64,000 nucleotides of DNA from an uncultured Candidatus Saccharibacteria bacterium. GTDB taxonomy: Bacteria; Patescibacteriota; Minisyncoccia; Phycocordibacterales; EsbW-18. This document shows positions 3,762 through 28,223 of the stretch, piece by piece. The notes below the pieces were generated by a model. It saw only the letters and a list, made by a program, of their open reading frames with translations, searched no databases and was not told the DNA's origin. Both the position numbers and the translations under genes were made by a program. The stretch is taken from contig CAYZIR010000003.1 in the NCBI GenBank assembly GCA_964478705.1, forward strand, positions 17,223 to 81,222, given 5' to 3'. Within the stretch, counting starts at the first letter, position 1. Every line of letters begins with the position of its first letter.

Positions 3762-5027
3762 TTAACGCCCAAGAATCGCATCAAGCGTGTTTCGTTTGAT
3801 AATCATCCACGCCGGAATATATCCTGCAATCAGGGTCGCAACGATGAGTATAGTGAGTTTAATCAACGTACTTGAAATTGGAGCGACAAGAATACCATCG
3901 GAAAATGGAAAATTAATTGGATGTGTATTAAAAAACGGCACCAATAATCCGTAGATAATAATCAGAGCGAGTCCTGATCCGATAATAGCGTACAACAATG
4001 ATTGGATAACATAGGACAATTCAATCGCGCCCGCGCGCACACCGATACCTTTTAGAATACCTATATACTTTCTGCGTGTAATTGCATTCACGAAGATTAC
4101 GATGAAGATGGTGATTGATGAAACCATCAGACCAACAGAGCTAATGCCATTACCGAGCATCGCAAACGTGTTGATCATATCGAGCAGGAACTGTGGCAAT
4201 CCTTCGCGTGAGAGACGTACAAGAGCAGATTCCCCTGCACCACTCGCAAGGAGCGCCTGTTTGATCGTTGCCGGGTCATGACCTTCATCAACACGAATCG
4301 CAATCTCATTCATATTAAGATTGGTACGCCCCGAGACACGTATAAATTCTCCCTTTGTCACAAACACACGGCGTGAAATCTCATCAACTTTTGTCTTTAA
4401 AATTCCTTTGACGATATACTCCTTTGTTGCATCGCCAACCGTCACGCGAATACGGCTCCCTGGCTTTACGTTTGAGAGAGTTGGATATCCGACATCATCA
4501 CCTTGTCCCAATGGGGAATACTGTTCGAGCAGATTCGCACCGAGCATCACATACCCACCATCCTGGTTGGTCAAATATGAACCTTCAATCACACTGTCAG
4601 CAAGGCCTGTCACAATGTTTTCGATGTCAGGATCGAAGCCAACAATTGTCGTTCCGACAGCGTCACGGAGTGCTTTAGGATCGCGACGCTCGCGGTAGTT
4701 CGCTTCGAGCGTTACTCCTTCAGTGAATCGCGCGCTGTACGCCTCGATACCAGGGATGGTTTCAAGCGTTGTGATAAGCGTTGGCGTTTGTTCAATATAT
4801 TTTTCACCTGCAGGTGTTGTGATAAAGACGTTCCCTGTGAATTGATCTTCGTACGTCTTTACCGACCCTTCAATCAATCCGACCAAAATTCCTGAAACTG
4901 CTACTAGGTTCAAGAACGTCAACATCATGATGAAGATGATGAGTGTCGTGGTCCAAATACTTGCATGACGAATCTGCTTCCATCCGAGCAAGAATCCGAC
5001 TCGTAGTGTGTCTCGGAATACAGACAT
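3762..5027 (-). CDS. ABC transporter permease (FtsX/MacB-type, with large periplasmic domain)
   Basis: ORF-track 3762..5102. The internal Met at 5027 (MSVFRDTL…) leaves a 4-nt gap to the upstream HlyD stop and is the more likely start. Four C-terminal TM helices typical of the FtsX fold. Confidence 0.8.
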   Translation of the reverse strand: MSVFRDTLRVGFLLGWKQIRHASIWTTTLIIFIMMLTFLNLVAVSGILVGLIEGSVKTYEDQFTGNVFITTPAGEKYIEQTPTLITTLETIPGIEAYSARFTEGVTLEANYRERRDPKALRDAVGTTIVGFDPDIENIVTGLADSVIEGSYLTNQDGGYVMLGANLLEQYSPLGQGDDVGYPTLSNVKPGSRIRVTVGDATKEYIVKGILKTKVDEISRRVFVTKGEFIRVSGRTNLNMNEIAIRVDEGHDPATIKQALLASGAGESALVRLSREGLPQFLLDMINTFAMLGNGISSVGLMVSSITIFIVIFVNAITRRKYIGILKGIGVRAGAIELSYVIQSLLYAIIGSGLALIIIYGLLVPFFNTHPINFPFSDGILVAPISSTLIKLTILIVATLIAGYIPAWMIIKRNTLDAILGR

Positions 5028-12069: not shown

Positions 12070-12453
12070 TTAGAAAATATAGCGTCCAAAAATAAGAATA
12101 CCGACACCAAGTGCCATACATGCCGAGATAAGAACGGCTGACGCAGCGACATCTTTCGTGTCTCGTGCGTATGGATGGTACTCGGGAGAGGTGAGGTCAA
12201 TATCAATTTCAATCGCAGTATTAAATGCTTCTGCAGCCAAAACAATACCTCCGACAAGAATCAAAACAATCCACTCACTGTGTGTAATGCGAAAATAAAA
12301 ACCTAAGAACAGCGCAATTGCAAAAACAACAATGTGAATCCACGCGTTATGAGTGGTCTTGAGGAATATCCATAGCCCTCGCCCTGCGTGGGTAAAACTC
12401 TTCGCGCGTTTTACGAGCGAGAAATTCTTTTTGTCATCCGGTGTGAGCTCCAT
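12070..12453 (-). CDS. dgkA: Diacylglycerol kinase / undecaprenol kinase family (DgkA)
   Basis: …AEAFNTAIE… prokaryotic DAGK signature; 3 TM; ~125 aa. Confidence 0.8.
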   Translation of the reverse strand: MELTPDDKKNFSLVKRAKSFTHAGRGLWIFLKTTHNAWIHIVVFAIALFLGFYFRITHSEWIVLILVGGIVLAAEAFNTAIEIDIDLTSPEYHPYARDTKDVAASAVLISACMALGVGILIFGRYIF

Positions 12454-12478
12454 AGAGAAAGTATACCAATAAAATCTT

Positions 12479-12799
12479 TCAGGAAGTGGGCTCTAGGTGG
12501 GAGAACCATTTTTTATTGATGGCTGAAACGAGATCGATTCCTTCGTTGTGAGCAAAAACGAGCAGGTAGCCAAATACGTCAGCACATTCTTGCGCAAGTA
12601 ATTCAGCAATTTCCTCTTTACTCTTCCCTTTCTGTCGCCCTCGGTCGGTGAGCATGAGATATGCTTGTATACATTCGCCCCACTCTTCAGTGATTTTAAA
12701 CGGAAGATAGTCAGTGCCCATGTGAACATCTGGATACATTTCTTTGTATTTTTCTATAAGGAGTACAGCTCGAGACGTAAGAGTAGAGAGTGAATCCAT
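12479..12799 (-). CDS. MazG-like nucleotide pyrophosphohydrolase domain protein
   Basis: Small all-alpha protein with a MazG-like EEWGE…E pattern. Confidence 0.5.
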   Translation of the reverse strand: MDSLSTLTSRAVLLIEKYKEMYPDVHMGTDYLPFKITEEWGECIQAYLMLTDRGRQKGKSKEEIAELLAQECADVFGYLLVFAHNEGIDLVSAINKKWFSHLEPTS

Positions 12800-12801
12800 A
12801 C

Positions 12802-13377
12802 TTAATTGCCATAACGTCGAATAACGGATCGAACAACCGCAGCAACATTCATCTCCTCTTGAGGATAGATATTTTTATATTTTTTATTACCGGGCTCAAG
12901 ATAGAATCCATCAGCATTTTTGCGCAAATATTTTAGCGTCCACCCCCCATCAATGTACGCAATAACAATGTCACCGATTTTGTGTTTATCGGTACGTTCA
13001 ACAAGAACAAAATCTCCTTCAAAAATGCCGGCATCCTCCATCGAATCTCCTTTGACGCGAAGAATGAAGGTTGCATCATGATCACGAACCAACCATTCAT
13101 CGAGTGTTGTAGTATCAAAAACCGCTTCATCAGTTGGCGACGGTATACCAGCCTCAACGAGACCAAGCATTGCAATTTCACCAAAGAGCTTTGTCGGCGT
13201 AAGACGACCAAGATGGTCTTTCATTACGACGCCGGCATCTAGAAGTTTATCGACGACCTTTGCAACCGCATTTTTTGATTTAAAACCGAAGAGACGCGCC
13301 ATCTCTGCATACGACGGCATCCGTTTATTCGTTCCGTAGAAACGGTCTATTTTTTGTGAGTATTCGTTGAGGTTCAT
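12802..13377 (-). CDS. lexA: LexA repressor (S24 peptidase)
   Basis: N-terminal wHTH, VKGDSM Ser nucleophile motif, and catalytic Lys in …TLKYL…; 191 aa. Confidence 0.9.
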   Translation of the reverse strand: MNLNEYSQKIDRFYGTNKRMPSYAEMARLFGFKSKNAVAKVVDKLLDAGVVMKDHLGRLTPTKLFGEIAMLGLVEAGIPSPTDEAVFDTTTLDEWLVRDHDATFILRVKGDSMEDAGIFEGDFVLVERTDKHKIGDIVIAYIDGGWTLKYLRKNADGFYLEPGNKKYKNIYPQEEMNVAAVVRSVIRRYGN

Positions 13378-13571
13378 TAGAAGAGTGCGATTGCACCTGC
13401 AAGACGCGCAAAGAATGGTTGACGACGCTCGCGTCGCGCTTGCTGTATGAGTTCGCGGTGACGCTTTGCTTCAGATCTATATGATAGCCCGTGAAGAATC
13501 TTTTCATCAATGAGAAGGTTGAGTGTATTCAACTGATTCTCAATGCTCTCCTGGTATTGTTTGTAATTCAT
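13377..13571 (-). CDS. Small hypothetical protein co-transcribed upstream of lexA
   Basis: 64-aa ORF overlapping the lexA start (ATGA) and downstream of the LexA-box promoter. Confidence 0.4.
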   Translation of the reverse strand: MNYKQYQESIENQLNTLNLLIDEKILHGLSYRSEAKRHRELIQQARRERRQPFFARLAGAIALF

Positions 13572-13615
13572 AGTGATATGCAGTACTACTCCCCTGTAAT
13601 GATGATTGTAGTATA

Positions 13616-13633
13616 GGTGAACAGTCGTTCACC
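13616..13633. promoter_or_regulatory. Cheo-type SOS box (GAAC-N4-GTTC) in the spacer of the lexA operon promoter
   Basis: Perfect palindrome GGTGAAC-AGTC-GTTCACC. On the minus sense it lies between TTGCAT (-35) and TATACT (-10), 45 nt upstream of the operon start. Confidence 0.7.
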
Positions 13634-13670
13634 ATGCAAGTATACCTGTGGACAACTCACGTATGGCACG

Positions 13671-13700
13671 AAAAAGCCCGCCCCATAGCATGGGGCGGGC
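13671..13700 (-). terminator. Rho-independent terminator after the ABC exporter gene
   Basis: gcccgcccc-atagcat-ggggcgggc hairpin followed by T-run on the minus strand. Confidence 0.65.
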
Positions 13701-13714
13701 GTTGAATTACAACC

Positions 13715-15538
13715 TTATGCCAACAAATGATCTTGCCCAGCGATGAGCTTGCGAAACGTCGGTGACGTTTCGACCAGCTGATCAAACGATGAGCCGATCG
13801 ACTCAATCGTACCCTTCGCCAGAACGATAATGCGGTCTGCATCACGTACGGTCGAAAGCCGATGAGCAACGACGAGCATGCCAGATCCGTTAATCCACTT
13901 ACGAAGTCCTTCGAGAACTTCGGTTTCGGTGGAAGAATCAAGGGCACTCGTTGCTTCATCAACAATGAGAAGTTTCGGACGTTTGATAACCGCTGCTCCG
14001 ATTGCGAGGCGTTGCGCCTGACCGCCAGAGAGTTGCACCCCATCCCGACCAACGACGATATCAAGAAGATTCTCGTTCTTTGGTCGTACGCCGAAATCAA
14101 TCGCAAGATCGGATACAAGCTCAAGCAAGGACTCATCAGTCCACAGGTCGCGCTCATGTTCCGGAATACCGTACAAGAGATTGTCTCTCACGGTACCATC
14201 GAAAATGAGTGGTTTCTGTGGGATGTATCCAATTGCGTTCAAACGCGAACCGCTCTCGTAGGTGCGGATATCTCGCCCGTTAATGAGCACACGACCCGAG
14301 AGCGGATCCATGAAGCGCATCGCAAGGTACTGAATCGTTGACTTCCCCGAGCCCGTCGGACCGATGAGCGCAACAGTTTCTCCGGGAGAAACTGAAAACG
14401 AGATGTCGCGAATTGTTTCGTCCGCATGCGGATACGAATACGACACGCGATCAAACTCGAGTGTAAGCGCACTGCTCGCATCGACAACCTCTGCACCGGT
14501 ATCATCAACGGCATCAGGAGTGATATCGAGCGTTTCGCGCATCACCTGAATCGCAGGAATTGCCGAATAAATGTTGCGCTCGATGAATCGAACACGCCAG
14601 ATATTCGAGATGATTTGTGATGACCACGCGAAGAGTGGATACAGCATACTGATTGTCGCTCCGCTACCTTCAACAGCCCGCATCGACTCACGGCAAAAGA
14701 CAATCAGCATGGCGACAACCATCAGTGAGTCCATCGCTGTGACGTGCTTGCTGTGGTGTGTCCAGAAAATCCGGTCACGCACGGCAACGTCAAGCCACCG
14801 TTCTGTGATCCGCCCGACTTCAAAGCTCTTCCGGTTCGACGTGTATACCCGCTCGAAAAGCCGGAATACTTCAGCGAAGAAACGCCTAAAGCGACTGAAG
14901 TCACGCTCAATCGGTGTGCAAACAACGGCGACAAGATAGTTCAGATACACTGACCATGCCAAGTTGATGGCGATGGCGATCCCGAGAACGACTCCACCAA
15001 ACGGCGAGACCGTCCACACAAGAACGTATGCAATAACAATCATACAGGCTACTTCGACAAACTCGGGAATTTGCCCGATGTACATGTCAAAGGCCTTGTC
15101 TTTCCCTTTGCTGACGCTCTCGTAGTTCAGTGTTTTTACGTGACGGTGTTGGCTCGGTGACTTTTCAAAGAACCGTTCCGCGACTCTGACATAGATATTG
15201 CGCGTCGAAAGCCCAAACAGGTGTTCGTGCGCCATCCAGTAGAGAAACGACATAAGCTTGTTGAGAAGCATGAGCACTCCAAGAACGAGCGCCGTTATGA
15301 CGATTCGATTGGAATCTTTGCCAACCACGCCTTGAAAAATCTTTCCGATGACAAACGGTTGAAACATACTCAACGTTACCGCGCCAAATGCAAAGAGATA
15401 TTTCGCACGAAGCCACGGCCGTACATCCGGTGAATCGGCAAGAGCAAAGACGTAGCGAATCGTTCGCAGTGTACCCCAGAGCTCTTTGAGAAATCCCTTG
15501 AACGTTGCCGGAGCTGTCGCTTCGATTTCAGTGTCCAT
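13715..15538 (-). CDS. ABC transporter, fused permease/ATP-binding (type I exporter, MsbA-like)
   Basis: Six-TM domain plus NBD with GPTGSGKST, LSGGQAQR and LLIVDEATSALD. Confidence 0.9.
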   Translation of the reverse strand: MDTEIEATAPATFKGFLKELWGTLRTIRYVFALADSPDVRPWLRAKYLFAFGAVTLSMFQPFVIGKIFQGVVGKDSNRIVITALVLGVLMLLNKLMSFLYWMAHEHLFGLSTRNIYVRVAERFFEKSPSQHRHVKTLNYESVSKGKDKAFDMYIGQIPEFVEVACMIVIAYVLVWTVSPFGGVVLGIAIAINLAWSVYLNYLVAVVCTPIERDFSRFRRFFAEVFRLFERVYTSNRKSFEVGRITERWLDVAVRDRIFWTHHSKHVTAMDSLMVVAMLIVFCRESMRAVEGSGATISMLYPLFAWSSQIISNIWRVRFIERNIYSAIPAIQVMRETLDITPDAVDDTGAEVVDASSALTLEFDRVSYSYPHADETIRDISFSVSPGETVALIGPTGSGKSTIQYLAMRFMDPLSGRVLINGRDIRTYESGSRLNAIGYIPQKPLIFDGTVRDNLLYGIPEHERDLWTDESLLELVSDLAIDFGVRPKNENLLDIVVGRDGVQLSGGQAQRLAIGAAVIKRPKLLIVDEATSALDSSTETEVLEGLRKWINGSGMLVVAHRLSTVRDADRIIVLAKGTIESIGSSFDQLVETSPTFRKLIAGQDHLLA

Positions 15539-15590
15539 GTCTCTTCTCCTTAGTGTAGAAGAACAATTGTTGGATTTGGTTGTGAAAGAA

Positions 15591-15622
15591 CAAAATACCC
15601 CGCCGGAATGGCGGGGTATTTT
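15591..15622. terminator. Bidirectional hairpin terminator
   Basis: accccgccggaatggcggggt with flanking A-run and T-run. Confidence 0.5.
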
Positions 15623-15932
15623 GAAAACTTAAAAAATAGAAATTAAGTCCTCAGAACACACCGCCCATAGGCTACAAACGATGCAAAGGCACCATTGCCC
15701 TTGAATGCTGAAAGCACGACGCTATCACGCATGCAAGATGCCTCAATATTTGAAATGTGTGCGGTTGTTTTCATGATGTGACTTGCGTAAAGGCAAGGTA
15801 AAACCATTATATCATTGATGTTATAACTGTCAATCACCACTCATATCCCCTTTTTCTTGTCGTTTATAAGCAGTCTCTTGATAAAAATTGACTTATAACT
15901 TCAAGCCTGTAGGCTGATTCTGGAAAAGCACC

Positions 15933-16976
15933 TTGAAAGGAGACGTGGTGATTCCCACTGACATCATCGAACGCATTGGAAAATTGCACGGATGTTTGTC
16001 GACCATCAAAACAACGAGCGGACGACGACAGTTCCCCAACCGAGAAGACGTGCTTCCGATGCAAAACATCTTCATCTCGGACACGGCAATTCTCATGAGT
16101 TCCAAAGTGTTTCGTTTGCTCGGATTGAAGACGCAGGTCGTCACGAGTCCACATGATCCGTTCATTCGGAATCGCATGACACACGTCATGGAAGTTGTCG
16201 CGTGTGCGACTGTTCTCGCCGAGATTCTCGGATTGAACACCGATCTCACGCACGCGATTGCTCTCGGACACGACATCGGACACGTGCCGTTCGGGCACCC
16301 CGGTGAGCACTTCCTCGCGAAAGCAATGGGACGTAAAGAATTCTGTCACGAAGTGCTCGGACCACTCGTTGCACAGAAAATCGAGCGACGAGGTTCGGGA
16401 CTGAACCTAACTTTTGAGACGCTCGACGGGATGATGCGTCACAGTGGCAACACTGCTCGCGAGGGCATGACCCCCGAAGCCTGGGTTGTGCGCTATGCCG
16501 ACAAACTCGCGTATATCTTTCATGACTGGAACGACATCAAGCGGATGGGGTACCCTGTCCCTGCCGAGCTCGTTTCACTCATGCATGAGTTCGGAGCAAA
16601 CCAACGCGAGCGAACTTCCACAGCAATGTCGGCACTCATTGAAGAATCCGCCGACTGTGGGCACGTGAGTTTCAAACACTCCCCACTCGCGCAGAAGTTT
16701 GAACAACTGCGCTCGCTGATGATGGGAATCTACCCACATCTGACACAGCAGGATTTGAGCGATGTGATGTCACCGGTTCTTGAGTTCCTGAAGGGACTCG
16801 ACATCGGCGACCCGTTCCTCCTTTTTTCGCTGATGACTGACAGGGACGTTCTTTTTCTTTCTGAACAGAAAACGAAAGACATCACGCACCTTCAGCACAC
16901 AGCGTTGAAAGAAATAATTCCTCACCTTTCGACCATCGGACCGATTGACCTTTGTTGTCCGTATCTCGACTGGTAA
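15933..16976 (+). CDS. dGTP triphosphohydrolase-like HD-domain phosphohydrolase
   Basis: RMTHVMEVVACA…ALGHDIGHVPFGH matches the dGTPase HD motif block. 347 aa, shorter than canonical Dgt. Confidence 0.75.
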   Translation: MKGDVVIPTDIIERIGKLHGCLSTIKTTSGRRQFPNREDVLPMQNIFISDTAILMSSKVFRLLGLKTQVVTSPHDPFIRNRMTHVMEVVACATVLAEILGLNTDLTHAIALGHDIGHVPFGHPGEHFLAKAMGRKEFCHEVLGPLVAQKIERRGSGLNLTFETLDGMMRHSGNTAREGMTPEAWVVRYADKLAYIFHDWNDIKRMGYPVPAELVSLMHEFGANQRERTSTAMSALIEESADCGHVSFKHSPLAQKFEQLRSLMMGIYPHLTQQDLSDVMSPVLEFLKGLDIGDPFLLFSLMTDRDVLFLSEQKTKDITHLQHTALKEIIPHLSTIGPIDLCCPYLDW

Positions 16977-17106
16977 TACCGTGAGCCTCTCCACAATCCG
17001 GAGAGGCTTTTTCGTACCTATCACCACACACGACTTCACATCATAGCCATCAAACTCTAACAGAGAAACGCTGGAAGCCCTTCGCCGAAGGCTATACTAT
17101 GGGGTT

Positions 17107-17748
17107 ATGGAACATCATCGAAAAAGCTTTTGGGAACAAGCCGGCGGAGCATCCGACTATAACGCTGAATGGAAAGAAAAAATCACCGGATACCTAAAGA
17201 AAATCTTGAAGCGAGAAGGTATCGAAATAGGTAGTGTCATTATAGATCTCGGTTCCGGCAAAAGACCTGTCTCTGAACACATCGCGCCTCCCGACAGCAA
17301 AGTTATCTATGTCGATTTTAACGCACCAGAAAAAGATCATGCGCACAATCAGCATGTGCACATCCAACGAGACATACACACTCTACTCGACGACGACTCT
17401 TTTTCTGCAAAACGAAGTTCGGTGGAGGTAGCCAAGTTTCTCGATGTAGCTCCTCGAAGTGACGACAGAGAGCGTGTAGATACCGTTATCATTTCGGATA
17501 TTTTAAATTACGTACCCTCAGAAAAAACCTTAGGAAAAATTCATACGTATCTAAAGCCAAACGGCATCGTAATTATCTTAAATCAACCTGGAAGAACGTT
17601 TGATTATGCTTCTCACACATTGAGCCCCGAGGGAGCTTCAAATAATAAAAATCTGAAGTCGTTCCTCACCGACACATTGGGAATGTCTCCTCTCTATGAA
17701 GAAACAACAAAAGAGGACTACTTCATTGGCGTCTACCAAAAACAATAG
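17107..17748 (+). CDS. Class I SAM-dependent methyltransferase
   Basis: Motif I IIDLGSGKRP, motif II/post I …VIYVDFN…, motif III PNGIVII. Confidence 0.7.
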   Translation: MEHHRKSFWEQAGGASDYNAEWKEKITGYLKKILKREGIEIGSVIIDLGSGKRPVSEHIAPPDSKVIYVDFNAPEKDHAHNQHVHIQRDIHTLLDDDSFSAKRSSVEVAKFLDVAPRSDDRERVDTVIISDILNYVPSEKTLGKIHTYLKPNGIVIILNQPGRTFDYASHTLSPEGASNNKNLKSFLTDTLGMSPLYEETTKEDYFIGVYQKQ

Positions 17749-17762
17749 TGAAACCGCTGTTG

Positions 17763-18215
17763 CTATCCATTGAACGCTTCTTCTATTTTCGCAATTTCAA
17801 TCTTGGTCATCTGGAGCATGGCCTGCATTGCTCGTCCGGCTTTTTCTCGGTCTGGGTCACTCATCATAGTCATCAGAGCTTTTGGTGTGATCTGCCATGA
17901 AAGACCGAATTTGTCTTTCAACCATCCGCACGCTTGAATCTCCCCGCCGTCTCCCAATTTCTCCCAGTAGTAATCAACTTCCGCTTGGTCATCACAATTA
18001 ATCATCAGCGACAGTGCTTCATTTAGTTTGAATTGCGAACCACCGTTGAATGCGATGATGCGTTGCCCTTCGATTTCAAACGTCACACCAAAGGGCTTAT
18101 CGTCAGGTCCCGGCATGACACCAATAGTTTTTGAATTCTTAAAAATTCCGAGATAGAAAGCTACCGCGTCCTCTGCGTGGCTACCGAACCAGAGAAATGG
18201 GGTAATTTTGTTCAT
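17763..18215 (-). CDS. VOC/glyoxalase-fold protein (PhnB / 3-demethylubiquinone-9 3-methyltransferase-like domain)
   Basis: …ITPFLWF… start, …FGLSWQI… pattern of the PhnB-like family. Confidence 0.65.
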   Translation of the reverse strand: MNKITPFLWFGSHAEDAVAFYLGIFKNSKTIGVMPGPDDKPFGVTFEIEGQRIIAFNGGSQFKLNEALSLMINCDDQAEVDYYWEKLGDGGEIQACGWLKDKFGLSWQITPKALMTMMSDPDREKAGRAMQAMLQMTKIEIAKIEEAFNG

Positions 18216-18264
18216 GATTGTTATTTATTTCTATAAATGCTGTGAATCCATGCTGAAACTTTTC

Positions 18265-18765
18265 TTATAGCATTTCTGATGCTTTGATCTTATCGAGCAA
18301 GGCTTCATGCTCGCACCTAAAGATAAAGCCTTCACCAAGCACAATATCGTGTGTCGTGTGATGCGGACGCTCTACTTTAATAACTGTTTCAGACACCTCA
18401 AATTCTTTGATCATGTCGTCATATGAAAGCGAAAGCGGGTAGACTTCGATGTGGTCGAATCCTTCCTTCTGAGAGCCGTCTGGTTTCTGATCGGACAATT
18501 CAAGGAAATATATTGTACCGAGCTCTGTCTCAATACCTTTCTTCAAACGTATGTACGCAATCCGCCGTTTTGAAATGATGGACTGATAGATAAAATCACT
18601 TTCGTCTTCAAACATCGCTCGCATGCTTTCAAACGACTCCTTTGAGGCACATTTCCAACAAATGTGATCCGCCTGTGCCCTTCCCTTGAGTGTATGCTTC
18701 TTTGCGAACGAATCGAAAAGAGCCACAAATCTCTCCGATTCCGCATGCAATGTTTCGATTGTCAT
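18265..18765 (-). CDS. VOC-family / YecM-like hypothetical protein
   Basis: 166 aa with YecM-like layout (…HICWKC… …DHIEVYP…). Confidence 0.45.
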   Translation of the reverse strand: MTIETLHAESERFVALFDSFAKKHTLKGRAQADHICWKCASKESFESMRAMFEDESDFIYQSIISKRRIAYIRLKKGIETELGTIYFLELSDQKPDGSQKEGFDHIEVYPLSLSYDDMIKEFEVSETVIKVERPHHTTHDIVLGEGFIFRCEHEALLDKIKASEML

Positions 18766-18818
18766 GATTGTTAGTGGCTACCTGACCTATCGGCAGGCAG
18801 GAATGATGTTAAATCAGC

Positions 18819-19370
18819 TTAAGAGATAAGACTGTTATAGATCTCCTCTAAGGTTCCTGAGAAATCATTGGAATTATCAAAAAATGGCAGACCGAGCTTT
18901 CCGCACTCTGATTCAAGATACTTACTAAACTCAATCATGTCTGAAATCGCAAAACGCATCTGATCATCCGTTTGGCTCAACGTCCAGTCACCATGTGAAT
19001 CTTGATATTTTCTAACCTCAAGAAGTTTTTGTTCTACATCGTGCTGCGGATATCCTACAAATGCTATTGTTACTTTTTCTGGATATTGATCGAGGACCTT
19101 CTTCGCTTGCTCTGGAAGAATACCGTCGCCTTCAATAAGATATGCGGGTTCGTCTTCCACCAAGTGAGAGAAAAGATTGTATGTAAATGGCCCCAGCTTA
19201 TGAGCTTTTTCTATAAACGGTTGCCCATGTTGAATATCAAGAGCCGGAGCCCCCTGAAGAGCACTGATTAATACATCTATTGAAAAGTAAGGGACCTTCT
19301 TTTCGTTGAGAAGTTTCCGAGAAATTGTTGATTTTCCTGAACGCGCAGCCCCTCCGAGAATGTAGAGCAT
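18819..19370 (-). CDS. P-loop NTPase / small-molecule kinase-like protein (CPT/zeta-toxin/adenylate-kinase-like fold)
   Basis: Walker A GGAARSGKST at N-terminus; 183 aa. Confidence 0.6.
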   Translation of the reverse strand: MLYILGGAARSGKSTISRKLLNEKKVPYFSIDVLISALQGAPALDIQHGQPFIEKAHKLGPFTYNLFSHLVEDEPAYLIEGDGILPEQAKKVLDQYPEKVTIAFVGYPQHDVEQKLLEVRKYQDSHGDWTLSQTDDQMRFAISDMIEFSKYLESECGKLGLPFFDNSNDFSGTLEEIYNSLIS

Positions 19371-19775
19371 AGTTGTTGGTAGATAATTTTCTGTAAGTTT
19401 AGAAGGATACCAAGGCTAAAATAACATCCATGTTCTTGCAACTCCCTCAAATTCACCACAGTTTGTTTCGAATTTCGAAAGAGGAATAGCAAACATCGTG
19501 TACGAGGTAAGAAAGATTTTACCTTGAGGACCCTCGCCAGCCGTGACTAATTTTAGAGTTATAACTCTCTCAGTCGGATTATCCATAAGAAGACGGACAT
19601 TTTGTTTAGCATCCTCTGGGCAAGACACTAGCGCGTCAGATACCAAAAGTTTTGTTAAGAAAGAGCTCGCAACAAAGAAAAGCAAAATGAGAAAGACAAT
19701 TAAAAGTATACGACTAAGGTTTGCATAATTATGTGTTGGTTATCTAGCCTGCCGACAGGCAGGGGCATAGTGAAA

Positions 19776-20603
19776 CTACCCTCTCTTCCAGTTATCGAGC
19801 TCCTGGTCAAAATTGTCGGGATTGTAGCTAAAATTTGAACTCTTTCCACGCATTGCGTCTGGTCGAACTATAAACAATCTTCTGTTATGAGAATCATAAA
19901 AGACTGAATCACCTCCTTTTACAGTCTTTGGTCCCACAATCACAAGTGGCTCAAAACCAAACGTCTCTTTTACGCGCTCAGTTAATAAAGCAATAGAGCC
20001 ACTGTAATCCCTTGCGAGAGCATCTTGTGGCAAATAGTCTGGCCGGAGATTGCCTCCAGCAATAACCGCATCAATAGTCCCCTCTACCGATCTTTCTTTT
20101 AACTCCCGTAGTCGTTCGAGTAAGTGTTGTGCAAAGCTATCTTTATTGAGACTAAAAAATTCTGTTGGGTCTTGATGACTCATGAGTGATATATTCTCAC
20201 CACTTTTTTTATCAATACCAGCAACAACCAACATTGTGCAGTTACGAAATTCCGCTGAAAACTTATCGCGACTGTTAACTTCAGAAATCACATACGTGTA
20301 TTCTCCAGCGTTTTTCATGCCCCGCCTCTTTAAAGACTCTGCATCTTTAAAGTAGTCAACATTATCCACCTCATCGCCAAGATAATTTGGATCAAAATAA
20401 TGTGCTTCCTTACTAAATTCATTTTGAAAATCTTCTTCGATTCCTACACAAGCAAAGATAGGTTTTATACCATCCTTAAGATGTCGCCTAGGACTTGCCT
20501 CCTGATGCACAACGTGATCACTCTCTCCTGCAGGGTTTTCTGAGTTTGCCTTGTTCTTGTCTACTTCTATGTTACCAGGTTGTTTATTGCCACTTTCAAA
20601 CAT
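19776..20603 (-). CDS. Hypothetical protein (275 aa, soluble)
   Basis: Long ORF with protein-like composition; no motif recognised. Confidence 0.5.
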   Translation of the reverse strand: MFESGNKQPGNIEVDKNKANSENPAGESDHVVHQEASPRRHLKDGIKPIFACVGIEEDFQNEFSKEAHYFDPNYLGDEVDNVDYFKDAESLKRRGMKNAGEYTYVISEVNSRDKFSAEFRNCTMLVVAGIDKKSGENISLMSHQDPTEFFSLNKDSFAQHLLERLRELKERSVEGTIDAVIAGGNLRPDYLPQDALARDYSGSIALLTERVKETFGFEPLVIVGPKTVKGGDSVFYDSHNRRLFIVRPDAMRGKSSNFSYNPDNFDQELDNWKRG

Positions 20604-20655
20604 ACGAATTTTAAGTTAATAGATTTTCATGTTGACTATTTAAACGGTATTGAAC

Positions 20656-21009
20656 CTATTCAATCTGGAAATCCAGCTGTTCATCAGGAATACCGATTGA
20701 TTTTCCATGTGCAATAGCATCTGTCCATGTTGTTTTATCAGAAAACTTAATCTGAAAGACCTTGTCCTTAAATACCACGAGCACATCATCTTTTCCTGAT
20801 TCCCAGAAATGAATGTACCAAGGACCATCTGAAAGATACTGTCCGATGTTTTGAGCAGTATTCTCATCTACAAGAACACTGTGAAGTACCCAATCGCCAG
20901 CGTGCCATGTTTTCTTAATCTGTACTCGATCAAGAATACTTTTATCTTTAAGACTATTTTCGATGATTGTTCTTTTGAGCATGGTGGGTTGCTTATCTGC
21001 CTCGACCAT
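20656..21009 (-). CDS. Hypothetical protein (117 aa)
   Basis: ORF with plausible composition; no motif recognised. Confidence 0.45.
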   Translation of the reverse strand: MVEADKQPTMLKRTIIENSLKDKSILDRVQIKKTWHAGDWVLHSVLVDENTAQNIGQYLSDGPWYIHFWESGKDDVLVVFKDKVFQIKFSDKTTWTDAIAHGKSIGIPDEQLDFQIE

Positions 21010-21043
21010 AGGCTACGGCCGAGGGTGACGATGTTTAAACTCA

Positions 21044-21814
21044 TTATTCAAACTCAACCAACAATGCCAGGTGATCCGAAACTTCATCTGGCAATGCTTC
21101 GAATTCTCTCACGTTAATATCTCCTGAAACTAAGACATAATCGGCAAATTTCTCCTCCTTCGGGTAATGATGATTACGTGTCGACGGTATGTTGTATTTT
21201 TTAATGAGGTTAATCATATTTTCTTCAAGCATATTCATGGCGTTACCATCATTCACGATATTGAAATCGCCACACAATATCTTTTTCCCTGTATGAGATG
21301 CTAGGAACTGGTTGATGACCTTCGATTGCTCGAGTCGCTCTGGAATATCTTTCTTCTGAGACTTATTTTTCCATAAACCATGGAGGTTGAGTACAGTTAT
21401 GCTTTCCTCACTGCTCAGTGCGAGCTTTACCCACTGGCACTTGCCACTCAGCATATCTCCTCCGCGCGTATACGACTGTTCAGGATGACTTTTGAAATGG
21501 CCGCTTTCCAGAATCGTGATATTTTTTCTTACAAAGATAACCTGCCCGCACCCAACCTCAGGATCAAGAAATTCACCATGGATGAATGATTCGGCGGGGT
21601 CTTTGTGTACAAATGAATCGAAATCGCTCAATACAGCGCGTAGTTCATCGTAGAGATTTAATCTTCCCTTCTGGACGGGACTAAACTCTGGCTGTGAACC
21701 AAAAAGCGCGTCCTGAAAACAAAAGATGTCGACGTCCTTCGAGTATTTCTGTATGAACGTCATGAGCGACTCATAGAGTTTACCGCCCCACAAGTTTAGA
21801 GTAATCAGTTTCAT
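21044..21814 (-). CDS. Endonuclease/exonuclease/phosphatase (EEP) family protein
   Basis: MKLITLNLWGG… start, catalytic SDHLAL near C-terminus, GDFN motif. ORF-track start at 21898 reads through the repeat element; the Met at 21814 is preferred. Confidence 0.75.
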   Translation of the reverse strand: MKLITLNLWGGKLYESLMTFIQKYSKDVDIFCFQDALFGSQPEFSPVQKGRLNLYDELRAVLSDFDSFVHKDPAESFIHGEFLDPEVGCGQVIFVRKNITILESGHFKSHPEQSYTRGGDMLSGKCQWVKLALSSEESITVLNLHGLWKNKSQKKDIPERLEQSKVINQFLASHTGKKILCGDFNIVNDGNAMNMLEENMINLIKKYNIPSTRNHHYPKEEKFADYVLVSGDINVREFEALPDEVSDHLALLVEFE

Positions 21815-21835
21815 GTTTGTTGCCGGACTAGGAAT

Positions 21836-22001
21836 CTCACTCGCTTCGCTCTCTAAGAACCCTCGGTTCTCAGCGGGCTTCGCCCTGCTCTCCAACACGG
21901 GAGAACACGTGTTCTCCCGACCCCACTCCTGTTCGAATCCAAGTCCGCGCTCAAACAGAAGTCACATTTCTGATACCGGACGGTATCAGAAATATCACTT
22001 G
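21836..22001 (-). mobile_element. Repeat family copy B: ~166-nt structured insert between a degenerate duplicate of the tRNA-Gln 3' end and the tRNA-Gln gene
   Basis: Core 21853..21893 is the reverse complement of 10688..10728 (41/41). Palindromes gggagaacac/gtgttctccc (21898..21917) and ttctgatacc/ggtatcagaa (21969..21992). Inverted tRNA 3' fragment gttcgaatccaagtccg at 21931..21947. Flank 21817..21836 ttgttgccggactaggaatc versus tRNA end 21999..22018 ttgttgccggacttggattc. Confidence 0.55.
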
Positions 22002-22072
22002 TTGCCGGACTTGGATTCGAACCAAGATACCCTCCTCCAAAGGGAGGTGTCCTACCATTAGACGATCCGGCA
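22002..22072 (-). tRNA. tRNA-Gln (anticodon TTG)
   Basis: Reverse complement TGCCGGATCGTCTAATGGTAGGACACCTCCCTTTGGAGGAGGGTATCTTGGTTCGAATCCAAGTCCGGCAA. 7-bp acceptor stem, anticodon loop CTTTGGA, T-loop TTCGAAT. Confidence 0.9.
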
Positions 22073-22201
22073 TTGTTCAATTGTCCTACCATTAGACCTG
22101 TCTAGCTGGCGCTAGCCAAGGCTGATCCGCCTCGGCTCGCTTCGCTTACCGAAGCGAGACGGGCGATCCGGCAGAATACAGGGACACTATACCCTGCGAC
22201 C

Positions 22202-22429
22202 CTACTTCTTTCCATATCGCTCGTGTATCTCAACGACCTTCTTCCGTGTGGTACTCCCTGCGACAATCCGTATCGCGGACTGTGGAACCTTGAGATATTT
22301 TGAAAGTTTGCGTATGACTTCAATGTTCGCCTTACCTTTTTCGGGAGTAGCGTTGATACCGACGACAAGTGTCTCGCCCTCTTCACGAACAAAGTCACCT
22401 TTGAGTTTTACACTCACCGAACGCTTCAT
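22202..22429 (-). CDS. yggU: DUF167/YggU-family protein
   Basis: 75 aa, …GETLVVGINATPEKGKANIEVIRKLS… typical of UPF0235/YggU. Confidence 0.7.
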   Translation of the reverse strand: MKRSVSVKLKGDFVREEGETLVVGINATPEKGKANIEVIRKLSKYLKVPQSAIRIVAGSTTRKKVVEIHERYGKK

Positions 22430-23496
22430 GATGATAGAGATGTCGCTTCAATAATTGCAAGTTCAAGTGGTAGTCCTGGGATTGCAGAACGGTCAAGCAT
22501 CGCGTAAGCGTCGATGAAGCGTGACAGGAGCGCTGAATTTACTTTCGAAGTTTTGTCGTGTGCGATTGTTTCGAGAAGTGTGATGTCGTCAGGTGTATAT
22601 TCGAGGGCAAGCGATTCTTTCATTGCAGGAGCAAACCTCAGAAGCAACACAACACGAAGTTTTTCAAGGAGTAGTTTACCGAGGATTTTCATATCAGTGC
22701 CCGCCTCACGCGCCGATGCAATTGCATTCAGTGCATCTTCGGATTTTCCTTCTGCAACCGCGCGAATCATGTCGTTCACGAGCGTTGAGGATGGTGTACC
22801 GGTTACCGTTGCGACCAACTCTCCACTCACCTTCTTTTCGGAAGCAATGGTGAGCACTTTTTGAAGAATGCCGTGCGCATCACGAAACGAACCTTCTGCC
22901 AGAAGCGCAATCAAATCCGCTGCATCTGTTGCGAGTTCATACCCTTCTTCCTTTGCCGTCGCAATCATGTGGTCACGCAAGAGCGCTCGGGTCGGCGTCT
23001 TGAACGAGTGCACTTCACAGCGCGAGATGATTGTCTCGGGGAGCTTTTCCATCTCGGTGGTTGCGAGAATGAAAATCACGTGTGCAGGTGGTTCCTCGAG
23101 CGTTTTCAGAAGCGCGTTGAAGGCTTCTTTCGTCAACATGTGTGCTTCATCGATGATGTACACCTTGTACGGTGATGCAAACGGGAGTGTATGCACCGCA
23201 TCGCGGAGCGCGCGAACGTCATCGATACCGCGATTACTTGCAGCATCGAGTTCGTAGGTGTCGCGGTCTTCAACACCGAGCATTTTTGCAAAAATCCGCG
23301 CGACGGATGTTTTACCCGTACCTCGCGTACCGGCAAAAAGATATGCATGCCCGACGTGCCCTTTTGAGAGCGCCGCAGAAAGAACCGCTATCACATGCTC
23401 CTGCCCACGAACAGTGTCAAAGTCGGTCGGGCGATATTTTCGATAGAGTGCCTGCGTCATGGGGCAATTATACACCAGACGCGAAAACGACCTCAC
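22426..23496 (-). CDS. dnaX: DNA polymerase III subunit gamma/tau (short form)
   Basis: YRPTDFDTVRGQEH…, Walker A GTRGTGKTS, DEAHML box, SRC motif; 356 aa. Confidence 0.92.
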   Translation of the reverse strand: MRSFSRLVYNCPMTQALYRKYRPTDFDTVRGQEHVIAVLSAALSKGHVGHAYLFAGTRGTGKTSVARIFAKMLGVEDRDTYELDAASNRGIDDVRALRDAVHTLPFASPYKVYIIDEAHMLTKEAFNALLKTLEEPPAHVIFILATTEMEKLPETIISRCEVHSFKTPTRALLRDHMIATAKEEGYELATDAADLIALLAEGSFRDAHGILQKVLTIASEKKVSGELVATVTGTPSSTLVNDMIRAVAEGKSEDALNAIASAREAGTDMKILGKLLLEKLRVVLLLRFAPAMKESLALEYTPDDITLLETIAHDKTSKVNSALLSRFIDAYAMLDRSAIPGLPLELAIIEATSLSS

Positions 23497-25155: not shown

Positions 25156-26028
25156 CTATTCAGAATCGTTGCTTTCTCCTTCACTCTGCTCTTCGCTCTT
25201 TTTATAGAACACTTTATTTTCGAATCGTAGATCAATGTAGTCGATGCTCTCAAGATGTATTGGATCTTCGGTCGTCTCCGACTGCATAATTGACGTGAGA
25301 TTCGATACCGCAGTATCAAATGGCGGTACGTGAGGAAAGCGAAGTGTCATATCAGTGAATCCCCCGTCATCTATAGCTCTACGCACGGACAGATCGAGCG
25401 AGTCGCTCGTCCACAGCACGCTCCTCGTCCGGAATCCAAGTGTTTCCAATGCATCAATCGCTTGGTGAAGGAGCGCGAAGTCGTCTTGATCAGTGAGACG
25501 CTTTCCGATGACACGTTCTGGGAATGTCCGTGTGTACGTGATAAGAGAGTTCCCCGAGACGTTCGGCGCGCGAGCGTATGCGAGCGCGCTTTGGTCAACA
25601 AAATAACATACCGTTGACATACTACTTACTGCTGAGCACCACAGTCCTTGGGGCGAGCGCTCAGTGATACGCACACGAATACTGTGAAGACCGACCCGAT
25701 CGATTGATACCTCTTCAATCCTGACAAATTCCTTAGTAAGACTTTCTACCAATGCGTCGTGCGGATATATAAAAATATTCCGTCGTGAAAATATATGCGC
25801 ATATGATCCGCCAAGATGTGAAATAACGGTGTCGAAAATTTCCCGATCAGCAATTGCTGAATTCCCTTCGATGGAAATTTTCTGAATTCTTGTGTATTTC
25901 AAGTTGACGAATTCAACGAGGAGAAAAAAAATACCGATAGCTAAAAAGAGCCATAGAAGCATCCTAACTCCAATGCGCCTGCGGTGTTCTTTACGAACAC
26001 GCTCTGAGATGAAACGTCGTCGCAACAT
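25156..26028 (-). CDS. Cell division protein FtsQ-like (N-terminal TM + POTRA-like domain)
   Basis: TM helix LLWLFLAIGIFFLLV followed by a beta-rich periplasmic domain, next to divergently arranged replication genes. Call rests on architecture only. Confidence 0.5.
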   Translation of the reverse strand: MLRRRFISERVRKEHRRRIGVRMLLWLFLAIGIFFLLVEFVNLKYTRIQKISIEGNSAIADREIFDTVISHLGGSYAHIFSRRNIFIYPHDALVESLTKEFVRIEEVSIDRVGLHSIRVRITERSPQGLWCSAVSSMSTVCYFVDQSALAYARAPNVSGNSLITYTRTFPERVIGKRLTDQDDFALLHQAIDALETLGFRTRSVLWTSDSLDLSVRRAIDDGGFTDMTLRFPHVPPFDTAVSNLTSIMQSETTEDPIHLESIDYIDLRFENKVFYKKSEEQSEGESNDSE

Positions 26029-26031
26029 CGG

Positions 26032-27303
26032 TTATGCGTTCTTGGTAATACGCTCACGACCACCCATGTATGGGCGGAGTGCCTCGGGAATGGTCACTGA
26101 ACCGTCTGCGTTTTGGTAGTTTTCAACAATGTGACAAAGAATGCGTGGCATCGCGAGCGCTGTGTTGTTGAGCGAGTGGACAAATCGCATCGTCCCATCA
26201 TCGTCTTTATAACGAATATTCAAACGACGTGTCTGGAAGTCGTGGAAGTAGGATGATGAGTGCGTCTCGCGGTATGTCTTTTCAGACGGCATCCACACTT
26301 CGATATCGTATTTCTTTACTTGACCAAGACCAATGTCGCCTCCGCAGTTGATAACGACGTGATACGGAAGATTGAGCTCCTGAAGAAGCTTCTCTGAGTT
26401 TTCAGTAAGTTCTTCGTGGATACGTACTGAGGTCTCATGGTTCGCTTCACATAAAACAACTTGTTCAAATTTGAAGAATTCATGAATGCGGAACACTCCC
26501 TTGGTGTCTTTGCCATAGCTTCCCGCTTCGCGACGAAAACACGGCGAGAACGCAAAAAATTTGAGCGGAAGCATGCTCTTATCAATCGTTTCGTTCATGA
26601 AGTACCCCATCATCGCAACCTCTGCCGTTCCTGCGAGATAGTCACCATCTTGTGTTTTATAGAGATCTTCTTCACTCTGTGGAAGATATCCAGTGCCCAT
26701 GAACGGTTCACGCTTTACGAGCGATGGCACGACCATCGGCGTAAATCCGTCACGCTCGCTGAATCGATCGATGACAAAACGCTCAAGTGCCCACATAAGA
26801 CGTGCCCCATCATTTTGAAGAAAGTACCCACGGAAGCCTGCAACTTTTGACCCTCGCTCGAAATCTGCCATACCATTCTCGAGCATCAAATCAACGTGAT
26901 TCTTTGGTTCAAAATCGAACGTGCGTGTATCACCCCACGTTTTCACCTCGACATTGTCTGCATCACTTGCTCCTTCTGGAACCGAGACATCGGGGACATT
27001 CGGTACGAGCACCATGAGATCGCGCCATGCGACCATGATTTCTTTGAGTTTGTCTTCTTTTGTCTGAAGTTCTTCTTTGAGGGTTCGCATCTGCGCAATC
27101 AACGCATCACGATCAGGGCCGTTCTTGGCAATGGCGTCCGTTGCAGTATTTTGTTGTGCACGAAGATCTTCGACAGCTTTGAGTACCTCACGGCGTTCAT
27201 CATCCACCTTGAGAAGTACATCGATATCAATATCGACGTGCTTTTTCTTTGCACCCGCGATGACTATGTCTTTGTTGTCTCGGATAAAATGTATATCAAG
27301 CAT
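26032..27303 (-). CDS. serS: Seryl-tRNA synthetase
   Basis: N-terminal coiled coil and class II aaRS motifs (…FRREAGS…, …GLGQV…). ORF-track start 27363; MLDIHFIRDN at 27303 is preferred. Confidence 0.9.
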   Translation of the reverse strand: MLDIHFIRDNKDIVIAGAKKKHVDIDIDVLLKVDDERREVLKAVEDLRAQQNTATDAIAKNGPDRDALIAQMRTLKEELQTKEDKLKEIMVAWRDLMVLVPNVPDVSVPEGASDADNVEVKTWGDTRTFDFEPKNHVDLMLENGMADFERGSKVAGFRGYFLQNDGARLMWALERFVIDRFSERDGFTPMVVPSLVKREPFMGTGYLPQSEEDLYKTQDGDYLAGTAEVAMMGYFMNETIDKSMLPLKFFAFSPCFRREAGSYGKDTKGVFRIHEFFKFEQVVLCEANHETSVRIHEELTENSEKLLQELNLPYHVVINCGGDIGLGQVKKYDIEVWMPSEKTYRETHSSSYFHDFQTRRLNIRYKDDDGTMRFVHSLNNTALAMPRILCHIVENYQNADGSVTIPEALRPYMGGRERITKNA

Positions 27304-27353
27304 GATGATTGCCTTTAGAATCCCTTTATATAGGCAAGTATATAGTATGCGCG

Positions 27354-28223
27354 ATGGATGCACAGCCCCCTATACGCACACTCTCAAAAAATGAATTTCC
27401 GCCTCTCCTACGCGAAATTCATGATCCACCGAAGCGTCTTTTTATACGCGGAAGTGATATCAATCAGTCATACATCTACCTCGCGGTTGTTGGCTCTCGG
27501 CGCTACTCTCACTATGGAAAAGACGTGTGCGAAAAACTCATCCACGGGCTTGCTGGGTATCCGATTTGTATTGTGTCAGGACTTGCCCTTGGTATTGATG
27601 CTGTTGCACATGAAAGTGCAATTCGTGCGGGACTCCCCACGATTGCGCTCCCTGGCTCAGGGATCGATGGACGCGTGCTCTACCCTCGTGCACACACTGG
27701 ACTCGCACGAACAATACTCTCTCATGGAGGTGCGCTTCTCTCGGAATATGAACCGATGCATGAAGCTGCGCCGTGGTGCTTTCCTGCCCGCAACCGAATC
27801 ATGGCCGGCATGTCTCACGCCGTGCTCGTTATTGAAGCACGAGAGCGTTCTGGGACACTCATAACCGCTCGCCTTGCGATGGAATGTGGGCGTGACGTGT
27901 TGGTTGTTCCTGCACCAATTTTTTCTCTCCACGGCATCGGAAGCAATCAATTGCTCCGAGAAGGTGCGCAGGTTGTTACATCATCAAAGGATATACTCCA
28001 AGCACTTGGTATTACACCTGACGAAACGACGGGCGCACCACTTCAGACCAACCTTTCCGACGACGAACGGATGTTGATAAAACTCCTTGAAGAGCCACAA
28101 CCGCTCGATGAACTTGTTAGACGCTCCGAGCTCCCTGTTTTTCGAACACAAACACTCATTTCAGCGCTCGAGATAAAGGGATATGTCGTGGAGAGACTCG
28201 GCATGATTGAGCGCGTACAATAA
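27354..28223 (+). CDS. dprA: DNA processing protein DprA (Smf)
   Basis: Rossmann-like DprA core …VVGSRRYS…GLALGID…ARERSGTLITA… ORF-track start 27309; the ATG at 27354 avoids overlapping the serS start. Confidence 0.85.
   Translation: MDAQPPIRTLSKNEFPPLLREIHDPPKRLFIRGSDINQSYIYLAVVGSRRYSHYGKDVCEKLIHGLAGYPICIVSGLALGIDAVAHESAIRAGLPTIALPGSGIDGRVLYPRAHTGLARTILSHGGALLSEYEPMHEAAPWCFPARNRIMAGMSHAVLVIEARERSGTLITARLAMECGRDVLVVPAPIFSLHGIGSNQLLREGAQVVTSSKDILQALGITPDETTGAPLQTNLSDDERMLIKLLEEPQPLDELVRRSELPVFRTQTLISALEIKGYVVERLGMIERVQ

Follow-up and report, generated by a model that had tools for sequence, protein, structure and literature searches.

The region analysed here is a run of accessory-looking genes that begins at position 15933 of a 64-kb stretch of contig CAYZIR010000003.1 (64,000 nucleotides in full, hereafter the window) and ends next to a tRNA-Gln(UUG) gene. 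A first-pass annotation, made from the letters alone, had taken this block for an island of eight genes placed at the tRNA, with contents typical of anti-phage or antibiotic-resistance islands. Our analysis indicates instead that the region is probably a native, fast-rearranging stretch of Paceibacteria chromosome beyond the conserved anchor dnaX-DUF167-tRNA-Gln, and neither a self-mobile island nor a recognisable anti-phage or antibiotic-resistance system. The block would be a string of independent single-gene units encoding small stand-alone enzymes, whose variable pattern was probably made by local insertions, deletions and rearrangements, and to which recombination at the scarred tRNA-Gln gene may have contributed. 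Which genes are present, their folds, their occurrence in relatives and their composition are shown by the data, whereas this mode of gene turnover and the individual biochemical activities discussed below are inferred.

All eight open reading frames (ORFs) were found where the first-pass annotation had placed them and its domain guesses were reproduced with Pfam, PADLOC and NCBIfam, subject to a corrected EEP start, a shorter length for unk108 and the addition of a ninth small ORF. Beginning with the gene furthest from the tRNA, the block encodes an HD-domain deoxynucleoside triphosphate (dNTP) triphosphohydrolase-like protein of 347 aa (HD347; 15933-16976, plus strand; PF01966, 43.5 bits against a cut-off of 22); a class I S-adenosylmethionine-dependent methyltransferase of 213 aa (MT213; 17107-17748, plus strand; Methyltransf_23/11/31 models); a VOC-fold protein of the PhnB/PF06983 type with 150 aa (VOC150; 17763-18215, minus strand; PF06983, 124.8 bits); a YecM-like VOC-fold protein of 166 aa (YecM166; 18265-18765, minus strand; PF06185, 49.3 bits); a P-loop kinase-like protein of 183 aa with a Walker A motif (Ploop183; 18819-19370, minus strand); a protein of 275 aa with a CheD/NTAN1-like (CNF1/YfiH-like) cysteine amidohydrolase fold (unk275; 19776-20603, minus strand); a conserved small alpha/beta protein of 108 aa (unk108; 20656-20982, minus strand); and an EEP-superfamily hydrolase of 256 aa (EEP; 21044-21814, minus strand; PF03372, 44.5 bits against a gathering threshold of 24.5). 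The ninth ORF, orf89 (19416-19685, minus strand, 89 aa), is a candidate gene that was called on an identical Logan contig. For EEP, the earlier ORF of 21044-21898 was shortened to the ATG at 21814, matching a database gene call with 100% identity and coverage, and the ORF previously given as 117 aa (20656-21009) was corrected to 108 aa with its ATG at 20982, the length of its 84 homologues being 107-108 aa. The long start of the HD347 ORF is plausible because its upstream part is conserved in a homologue of 57% identity.

The DnaX matches identified the host as a patescibacterial genome (candidate phyla radiation, CPR) of the Paceibacteria type: no species representative had a DnaX more than 57% identical to that of the window, whose close DnaX matches were all Paceibacteria, Nomurabacteria or Parcubacteria metagenome-assembled genomes. 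The tRNA-Gln(UUG) gene lies on the minus strand (22001-22072) with the block genes at lower coordinates, so that the block is indeed downstream of the tRNA 3' end, as first described, and on the other side a DUF167/YggU gene (22202-22429) and dnaX (22426-23496) belong to the conserved anchor. Gene order upstream of dnaX (g28269…Dus-DnaX) was kept in about 20 distant Paceibacteria genomes, and of 22 loci scanned, 18 had tRNA-Gln following dnaX; downstream of tRNA-Gln, these distant loci had nothing in common with the window.

Closer or more informative genomes were located via homologues of unk275, unk108 and EEP, and relatives were compared over 1.47 Mb of fetched Paceibacteria loci (designated by L numbers). 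The closest relative, L082 (GCA_018061915.1), was about 81-86% identical to the window at the nucleotide level where the shared genes are best conserved, and had the order DnaX (75%)-DUF167-tRNA-Gln-unk108 (80%)-unk275 (85%), followed by the unrelated genes for a Ser hydrolase, a 94-aa protein and Pterin_4a, and further on by homologues of the window's 185-aa, 197-aa VTT and BipA genes with three more unrelated genes interspersed. Compared with L082, the window carries an additional EEP gene and an additional 7.6 kb (12070-19685) that includes LexA, DAGK, the ABC exporter and the genes from orf89 to HD347; L082 had no EEP at its tRNA-Gln site and no match there to window positions 12070-19685. 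Other relatives held different subsets of these genes. In L102 the order was DnaX (48%)-VTT-GT2-tRNA-Gln-EEP (65%), with 47 nt between tRNA and EEP and a PF06983 VOC gene 3 kb beyond; in L099 a DAGK-LexA-64aa trio was 64-81% identical to that of the window, and tRNA-Gln(CUG), a tRNA_bind gene and EEP (76%, tblastn) lay within about 0.7-1.4 kb of the trio; and L091 had the arrangement DnaX…tRNA-Gln…unk108-127aa-PF06983 VOC-DAGK. EEP, unk108, unk275, the PF06983 VOC protein and DAGK thus recur in the dnaX/tRNA-Gln neighbourhood within the lineage, VOC150 homologues of 41-43% identity being found downstream of dnaX in L018, L091 and L102.

The remaining genes behaved differently, with orf89, Ploop183, YecM166, MT213 and HD347 lacking a counterpart at the syntenic site in L082 or L099, and the ABC exporter giving just weak ABC-domain matches in the fetched loci. 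The truly variable part therefore differs from the block as first delimited, between the ABC exporter and tRNA-Gln: it comprises orf89–P-loop–YecM–(VOC)–methyltransferase–HD together with the ABC exporter (13.7–19.7 kb), so that on the left the variable segment reaches further than had been drawn and takes in the exporter itself. The check for presence or absence in related genomes, proposed with the first-pass annotation, confirmed that content varies and at the same time showed that the block does not vary as one unit, since L082 keeps unk108-unk275, L102 and L099 keep EEP, and L091 keeps unk108 with a VOC protein.

Protein identity between the window and L082 was very uneven (window 25156-27363 vs L082 1-1584 for the two least similar genes), with values of 99% for BipA, 90.5% for Dus, 75% for DnaX, 46% for a class II aminoacyl-tRNA synthetase-like protein of 443 aa and 43% for its 290-aa neighbour. 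For the 443-aa protein, much more distant Paceibacteria were nearer (56-66%) than L082, a pattern that suggests gene replacement in one lineage. Recent recombination was considered for the 99% BipA identity and rejected, as nucleotide identity over the aligned block with this gene is just about 81%; the protein identity looks like the result of strong purifying selection.

Composition was examined for the eight genes and orf89, whose synonymous-codon likelihoods all fell within the window range (z -0.8 to +1.5), indicating native codon usage. GC content was 0.39-0.41 (z -1.7 to -2.3) in four adjacent genes, from Ploop183 to unk108, and 0.42-0.46 in the others except HD347, whose GC (0.524, with a GC3 of 0.609) was the highest of the region and among the highest of all genes in the window. 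With low GC confined to four genes and a GC-rich HD347, the block is heterogeneous in composition and not uniformly foreign. The proposed comparison of GC and codon usage with the rest of the window thus gave a divided answer, in that codon usage did not deviate while GC did in four genes, though HD347 departs in the opposite direction. No integrase, recombinase, transposase or phage gene was detected among the eight block genes with Pfam, NCBIfam and PHROGs, and orf89 had no mobility or phage match in Pfam and PHROGs. No repeats flanking the block were found: a repeat search over 11.0-22.3 kb returned tRNA-related repeats only, and there was no copy of the tRNA 3' end near 15.9 kb.

The tRNA-Gln gene itself is surrounded by fragments of its own sequence. 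A partial direct copy of its 3' end (18/20 positions; 21817-21836, minus strand) abuts the EEP start codon on its upstream side and is the sole such copy in the window, with 0 expected. This is the att-like footprint at which the first-pass annotation had ended the block, and the copy is real; what it borders, together with tRNA-Gln, is only a hairpin-rich spacer of 162 bp without a gene, the block genes lying beyond. The copy stands between the tRNA and the block, which it therefore does not bracket. Between the copy and the tRNA are the mirrored trailer, in which tRNA-Gln positions 51-67 are repeated exactly (17 nt) in inverted orientation (21931-21947, plus strand) at a distance of 53 nt from the tRNA 3' end, and a strong terminator-like hairpin with 20-nt arms directly after the tRNA (21959-22000, minus strand). 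Just upstream of the tRNA gene is an exact 16-nt direct copy of its D-arm (positions 10-25; 22082-22097, minus strand). Short GC hairpins, their loops of the TTCG/GAAG type, are densely arrayed on both sides of the tRNA (21840-21925 and 22110-22170), and one of these elements is a perfect 20-nt palindrome (GGGAGAACACGTGTTCTCCC; 21899-21918). An Rfam scan over 15.4-22.5 kb reported the tRNA alone, besides sub-threshold terminator-like matches.

Such self-fragments of tRNA-Gln were common across other Paceibacteria loci. In L082, a 19/19 copy of that genome's own tRNA 3' end (4952-4970) abuts the start codon of unk108, as the window's copy abuts that of EEP; in L012 (16360-17471), two 3'-end copies flank a single gene for an APH-family phosphotransferase/kinase (16490-17404); and L014 has a direct 3'-end copy (12733-12778) downstream of its tRNA-Gln. 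No integrase was found near the copies in L012, L082 and L014. An exact inverted copy of 12-17 nt, covering T-loop, T-stem and the acceptor 3' strand, stands 53-57 nt past tRNA-Gln in four genomes (window 21925-22028, minus strand; L091 3507-3610; L018 12240-12355; L006 6700-6821), with weaker inverted trailer copies in L015 and L099. Every inverted trailer copy matches the tRNA-Gln of its own genome, that is, it co-varies with it, and a nested hairpin is enclosed; none of 300 shuffles attained the observed length in the four loci, the trailer consensus helix contains five pairs with compensatory changes, and in predicted folds the 3' half of tRNA-Gln pairs with the trailer. The mirrored trailer could serve in termination, as a signal for processing or as a site of recombination. 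The tRNA-Gln locus thus bears recombination scars as well as a mirrored trailer that is conserved, and its scars fit turnover of the adjacent genes, yet do not unite the eight genes as one island.

That the block is a horizontally acquired island, put in at the tRNA-Gln 3' end by a site-specific recombinase with the att-like repeat as its scar, appears very unlikely to us. The resemblance to known tRNA-associated islands is real: the block lies next to the tRNA 3' end, there is an 18/20 direct copy of that end, other pieces of tRNA-Gln are found both at this site and in relatives (among them the gene-bracketing repeats in L012), gene content varies between relatives, part of the block is low in GC and its central genes are missing from the relatives' fetched loci. 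Unlike such islands, the repeat pair spans 162 bp with the block outside it and the far end has no second repeat; a Pfam scan of the block showed no integrase or other mobility gene, codon usage is native, composition is mixed with HD347 (52% GC) above all other block genes, and EEP, unk108, unk275 and VOC150 are found in the same neighbourhood of other Paceibacteria, several of them as conserved tRNA neighbours. Of the accessory island first proposed, what stands is a variable stretch of stand-alone, non-core enzymes with four mildly low-GC genes and tRNA scars; a discrete island at tRNA-Gln does not. No relevant literature on tRNA islands of Patescibacteria was found. Several observations nevertheless weigh against a purely native origin. 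Across the 1.47 Mb of fetched loci, HD347, MT213, YecM166, Ploop183 and orf89 were without a homologue; nowhere in the 64-kb window is gene GC lower than from Ploop183 to unk108; and the low GC and the homologue-less middle genes would fit acquisition from another low-GC CPR lineage. The tRNA-Gln fragments and the bracketed kinase of L012 also show that events of an integration type have occurred at this tRNA in the clade, and the nearest available relative is only at genus level or further, so that gain and loss are not polarisable. A broader proposal, which we hold to be unlikely, takes tRNA-Gln, its mirrored trailer and the stray 3'-end copies as a lineage-specific site of recombination and gene capture in Paceibacteria, with recombinases acting in trans; as a separate point, it would make unk275 the founder of a deamidase family restricted to Patescibacteria. 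Genes would be inserted at tRNA-Gln singly or a few together, and examples would be the APH-type kinase of L012, the window EEP and the unk108 of L082, the last two starting right after the copies. Such a site, if true, would account for block turnover without a resident integrase.

Set against a native, rearranging chromosome stretch, two functional readings of the contents were also weighed. An anti-phage locus, in which HD347 depletes dNTPs like the defensive dGTPases, perhaps together with the EEP nuclease and the P-loop protein, seems highly improbable. HD347 has an intact HD motif, shares the HD catalytic core with the anti-phage dGTPases of PADLOC and NF041026, and matched the PADLOC dGTPase model with 110 bits (E 4e-32), and a PHROG of unknown function matched the same HD region. 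However, the PADLOC match spans just model positions 35-170 of 395 (34%), the NCBIfam antiphage_dGTPase model (NF041026) gave 72.4 bits against a cut-off of 400, and no defence-island context was seen. The best similarities were to housekeeping-type PRK01286 models (NF002327, 170.8 bits, E 4e-50) and to 2dqb, the nearest solved structure, annotated as a putative dGTPase (E 2.6e-26), with agreement in the HD motif and in length (347 aa vs a 345-position model); HD347 nevertheless stayed far below all equivalog cut-offs (171 vs 393 bits for NF002327; TIGR01353, 105 vs 152 bits) and its C-terminal third was uncovered by the models. In metagenomes it was found on three short contigs only, two at 57% identity, whose context was uninformative. 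The partial dGTPase match was the single meaningful PADLOC result for the block, no other gene reaching a meaningful E-value; HD347 and EEP, on opposite strands, are separated by 4 kb and differ in their conservation histories; and EEP is common among Patescibacteria. No membership of resistance or phage families was found for the block proteins in NCBIfam and PHROGs, and scans of viral contigs with EEP and with the unk275 family profile gave none, so the anti-phage or resistance content suggested for the block was not borne out. The second reading, that the middle genes form a detoxification or resistance module in which the kinase, the two VOC proteins and the methyltransferase modify a toxic compound that the ABC exporter pumps out, we consider quite unlikely, less so than a defence role. 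It draws on the co-directional arrangement of Ploop183, YecM166 and VOC150 with gaps of about 50 bp, on a Ploop183-family member fused to a Glyoxalase/VOC domain, on a weak likeness of Ploop183 to chloramphenicol-phosphotransferase-like kinases, on the place of the ABC exporter within the variable segment and on a homologue in L106 that lies 2 kb from a Glyoxalase-MarR pair. It is opposed by the failure of any resistance model to match (CPT, PF07931: 16.1 bits against a cut-off of 22, with the P-loop region alone aligned), by the hairpins between the genes and the use of both strands, and by VOC150 homologues that occur in relatives without the kinase; the substrate, moreover, is not inferable.

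Ploop183 belongs to a family without a Pfam model (881 cluster representatives, the nearest 50% identical), gave a further sub-threshold match to AAA_33 (13.9 bits) and was not found on metagenome contigs. The fusion mentioned above is a 314-aa homologue (P0251) that joins a Ploop183-like domain to a Glyoxalase/VOC domain, hinting that Ploop183 and the adjacent VOC-fold proteins may work together. MT213 had no NCBIfam or PADLOC membership, and for VOC150, whose nearest solved structures were 1u69 and the PhnB structure 3oms, no NCBIfam model matched. The EEP family comprised 1179 homologues, those with an organism name being all from Patescibacteria, and an identity as exonuclease III was ruled out (TIGR00195, E 0.056). 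The recurrence of the motif GRCAGGCAGG, presented in the first-pass annotation as a shared hairpin family, was upheld, with three occurrences in the window against 0.16 expected; the sites are short intergenic CCTGCC-N4-GGCAGG hairpins, among them a perfect CCTGCC-GACA-GGCAGG hairpin just past the stop codon of the unk275 gene (19745-19763), and a short GC hairpin motif (CCTG..GGCAGGCAGG) lies between Ploop183 and YecM166 (18785-18801).

The two proteins that had been described as having no recognisable domains, unk275 and unk108, indeed matched no family in Pfam, NCBIfam, PADLOC or PHROG, and structure prediction separated them, giving a deamidase-like fold for unk275 and no significant PDB match for unk108. 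The model of unk275 is an alpha-beta-beta sandwich of the kind that CNF1/YfiH-like cysteine hydrolases (CheD, NTAN1) have, preceded by about 35 disordered N-terminal residues. Only 21 homologues were found among 5.8 billion proteins, the named ones all from Patescibacteria or Parcubacteria, and in the alignment of 21 sequences Cys122 and His143 were invariant and Ser116 was at least 90% conserved. These residues can be compared with the catalytic triads T21/C27/H44 of CheD and S69/C75/H92 of NTAN1 (PMC7022378). The Ser-x5-Cys spacing (6) is the same in all three proteins, whereas the Cys-to-His spacing is 21 in unk275 and 17 in CheD and NTAN1, and unk275 is about 120 aa longer than CheD owing to its disordered N-terminus and extra C-terminal elements. 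It differs further in being rare, with its named members in Patescibacteria and no CheC or chemoreceptor genes seen nearby. To our knowledge, chemotaxis is absent from Patescibacteria of this kind. The Pfam models that failed to match included PF03975 (CheD) and PF14736 (N_Asn_amidohyd), the latter matching one of the 21 homologues weakly (E 0.13), and a PDB profile search returned nothing relevant; the link to CheD is therefore by fold only, there being no match at the sequence or profile level. On the modelled fold and the conserved residues, unk275 is predicted to be a cytoplasmic Cys-His amidohydrolase (deamidase).

Some Parcubacteria carry three unk275 paralogues clustered in about 8 kb, next to PFK, an M20 peptidase and D-Ala-D-Ala ligase (Ddl), and in another genome a homologue adjoins the gene of a C39-like peptidase and that of a YkuD L,D-transpeptidase; the family loci noted were L086 1572-9981, L088 10001-16064 and L108 4215-6774. 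These neighbours hint that unk275 may have a link to the cell wall.

For unk108, 84 homologues shared 51-90% identity and one more 39%, and its structure model was confident (pLDDT 95). A homologue of 200 aa (P0030) is extended at the C-terminus by a domain of about 90 aa without a Pfam match. The neighbours of unk108 differ between genomes, and a functional pair with unk275 was considered and rejected, as the two are adjacent only in the window and in L082. As read from its sequence, orf89 has a hydrophobic, signal-peptide-like N-terminus with a lipobox-like LVSC motif and no family match, and is possibly a small lipoprotein; its frame is open for 16 further codons upstream (19416-19730) without ATG, GTG or TTG, leaving its start and gene status uncertain.

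Beyond the left end of the block, a minus-strand unit (15591-15833) lies directly upstream of the ABC exporter gene. It consists of a perfect sigma-70-type promoter (TTGACA-16-TATAAT with TG; 15833→15806), a small ORF that spans 43-65 aa and ends at 15643 (shorter reading MKTTAHISNIEASCMRDSVVLSAFKGNGAFASFVAYGRCVLRT), and a strong intrinsic terminator (15623-15591), and its product could be either a small RNA or a small peptide for export.

What is new in the region amounts to further members of known superfamilies, chiefly the family with the CheD/NTAN1 fold, and the unexplained structure of the tRNA trailer. CPR organisms have tiny genomes in which many genes are unannotated, and in unk275 an orphan family confined to Patescibacteria now has a testable CheD/NTAN1-like prediction with its putative catalytic residues named. 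The tRNA-Gln self-fragments and the co-varying mirrored trailer could bear on tRNA processing, termination or gene exchange. An accessory-looking run of genes beside a CPR tRNA is not by itself an island, since the surroundings of tRNA-Gln form a conserved anchor next to which small-enzyme genes are kept only loosely.

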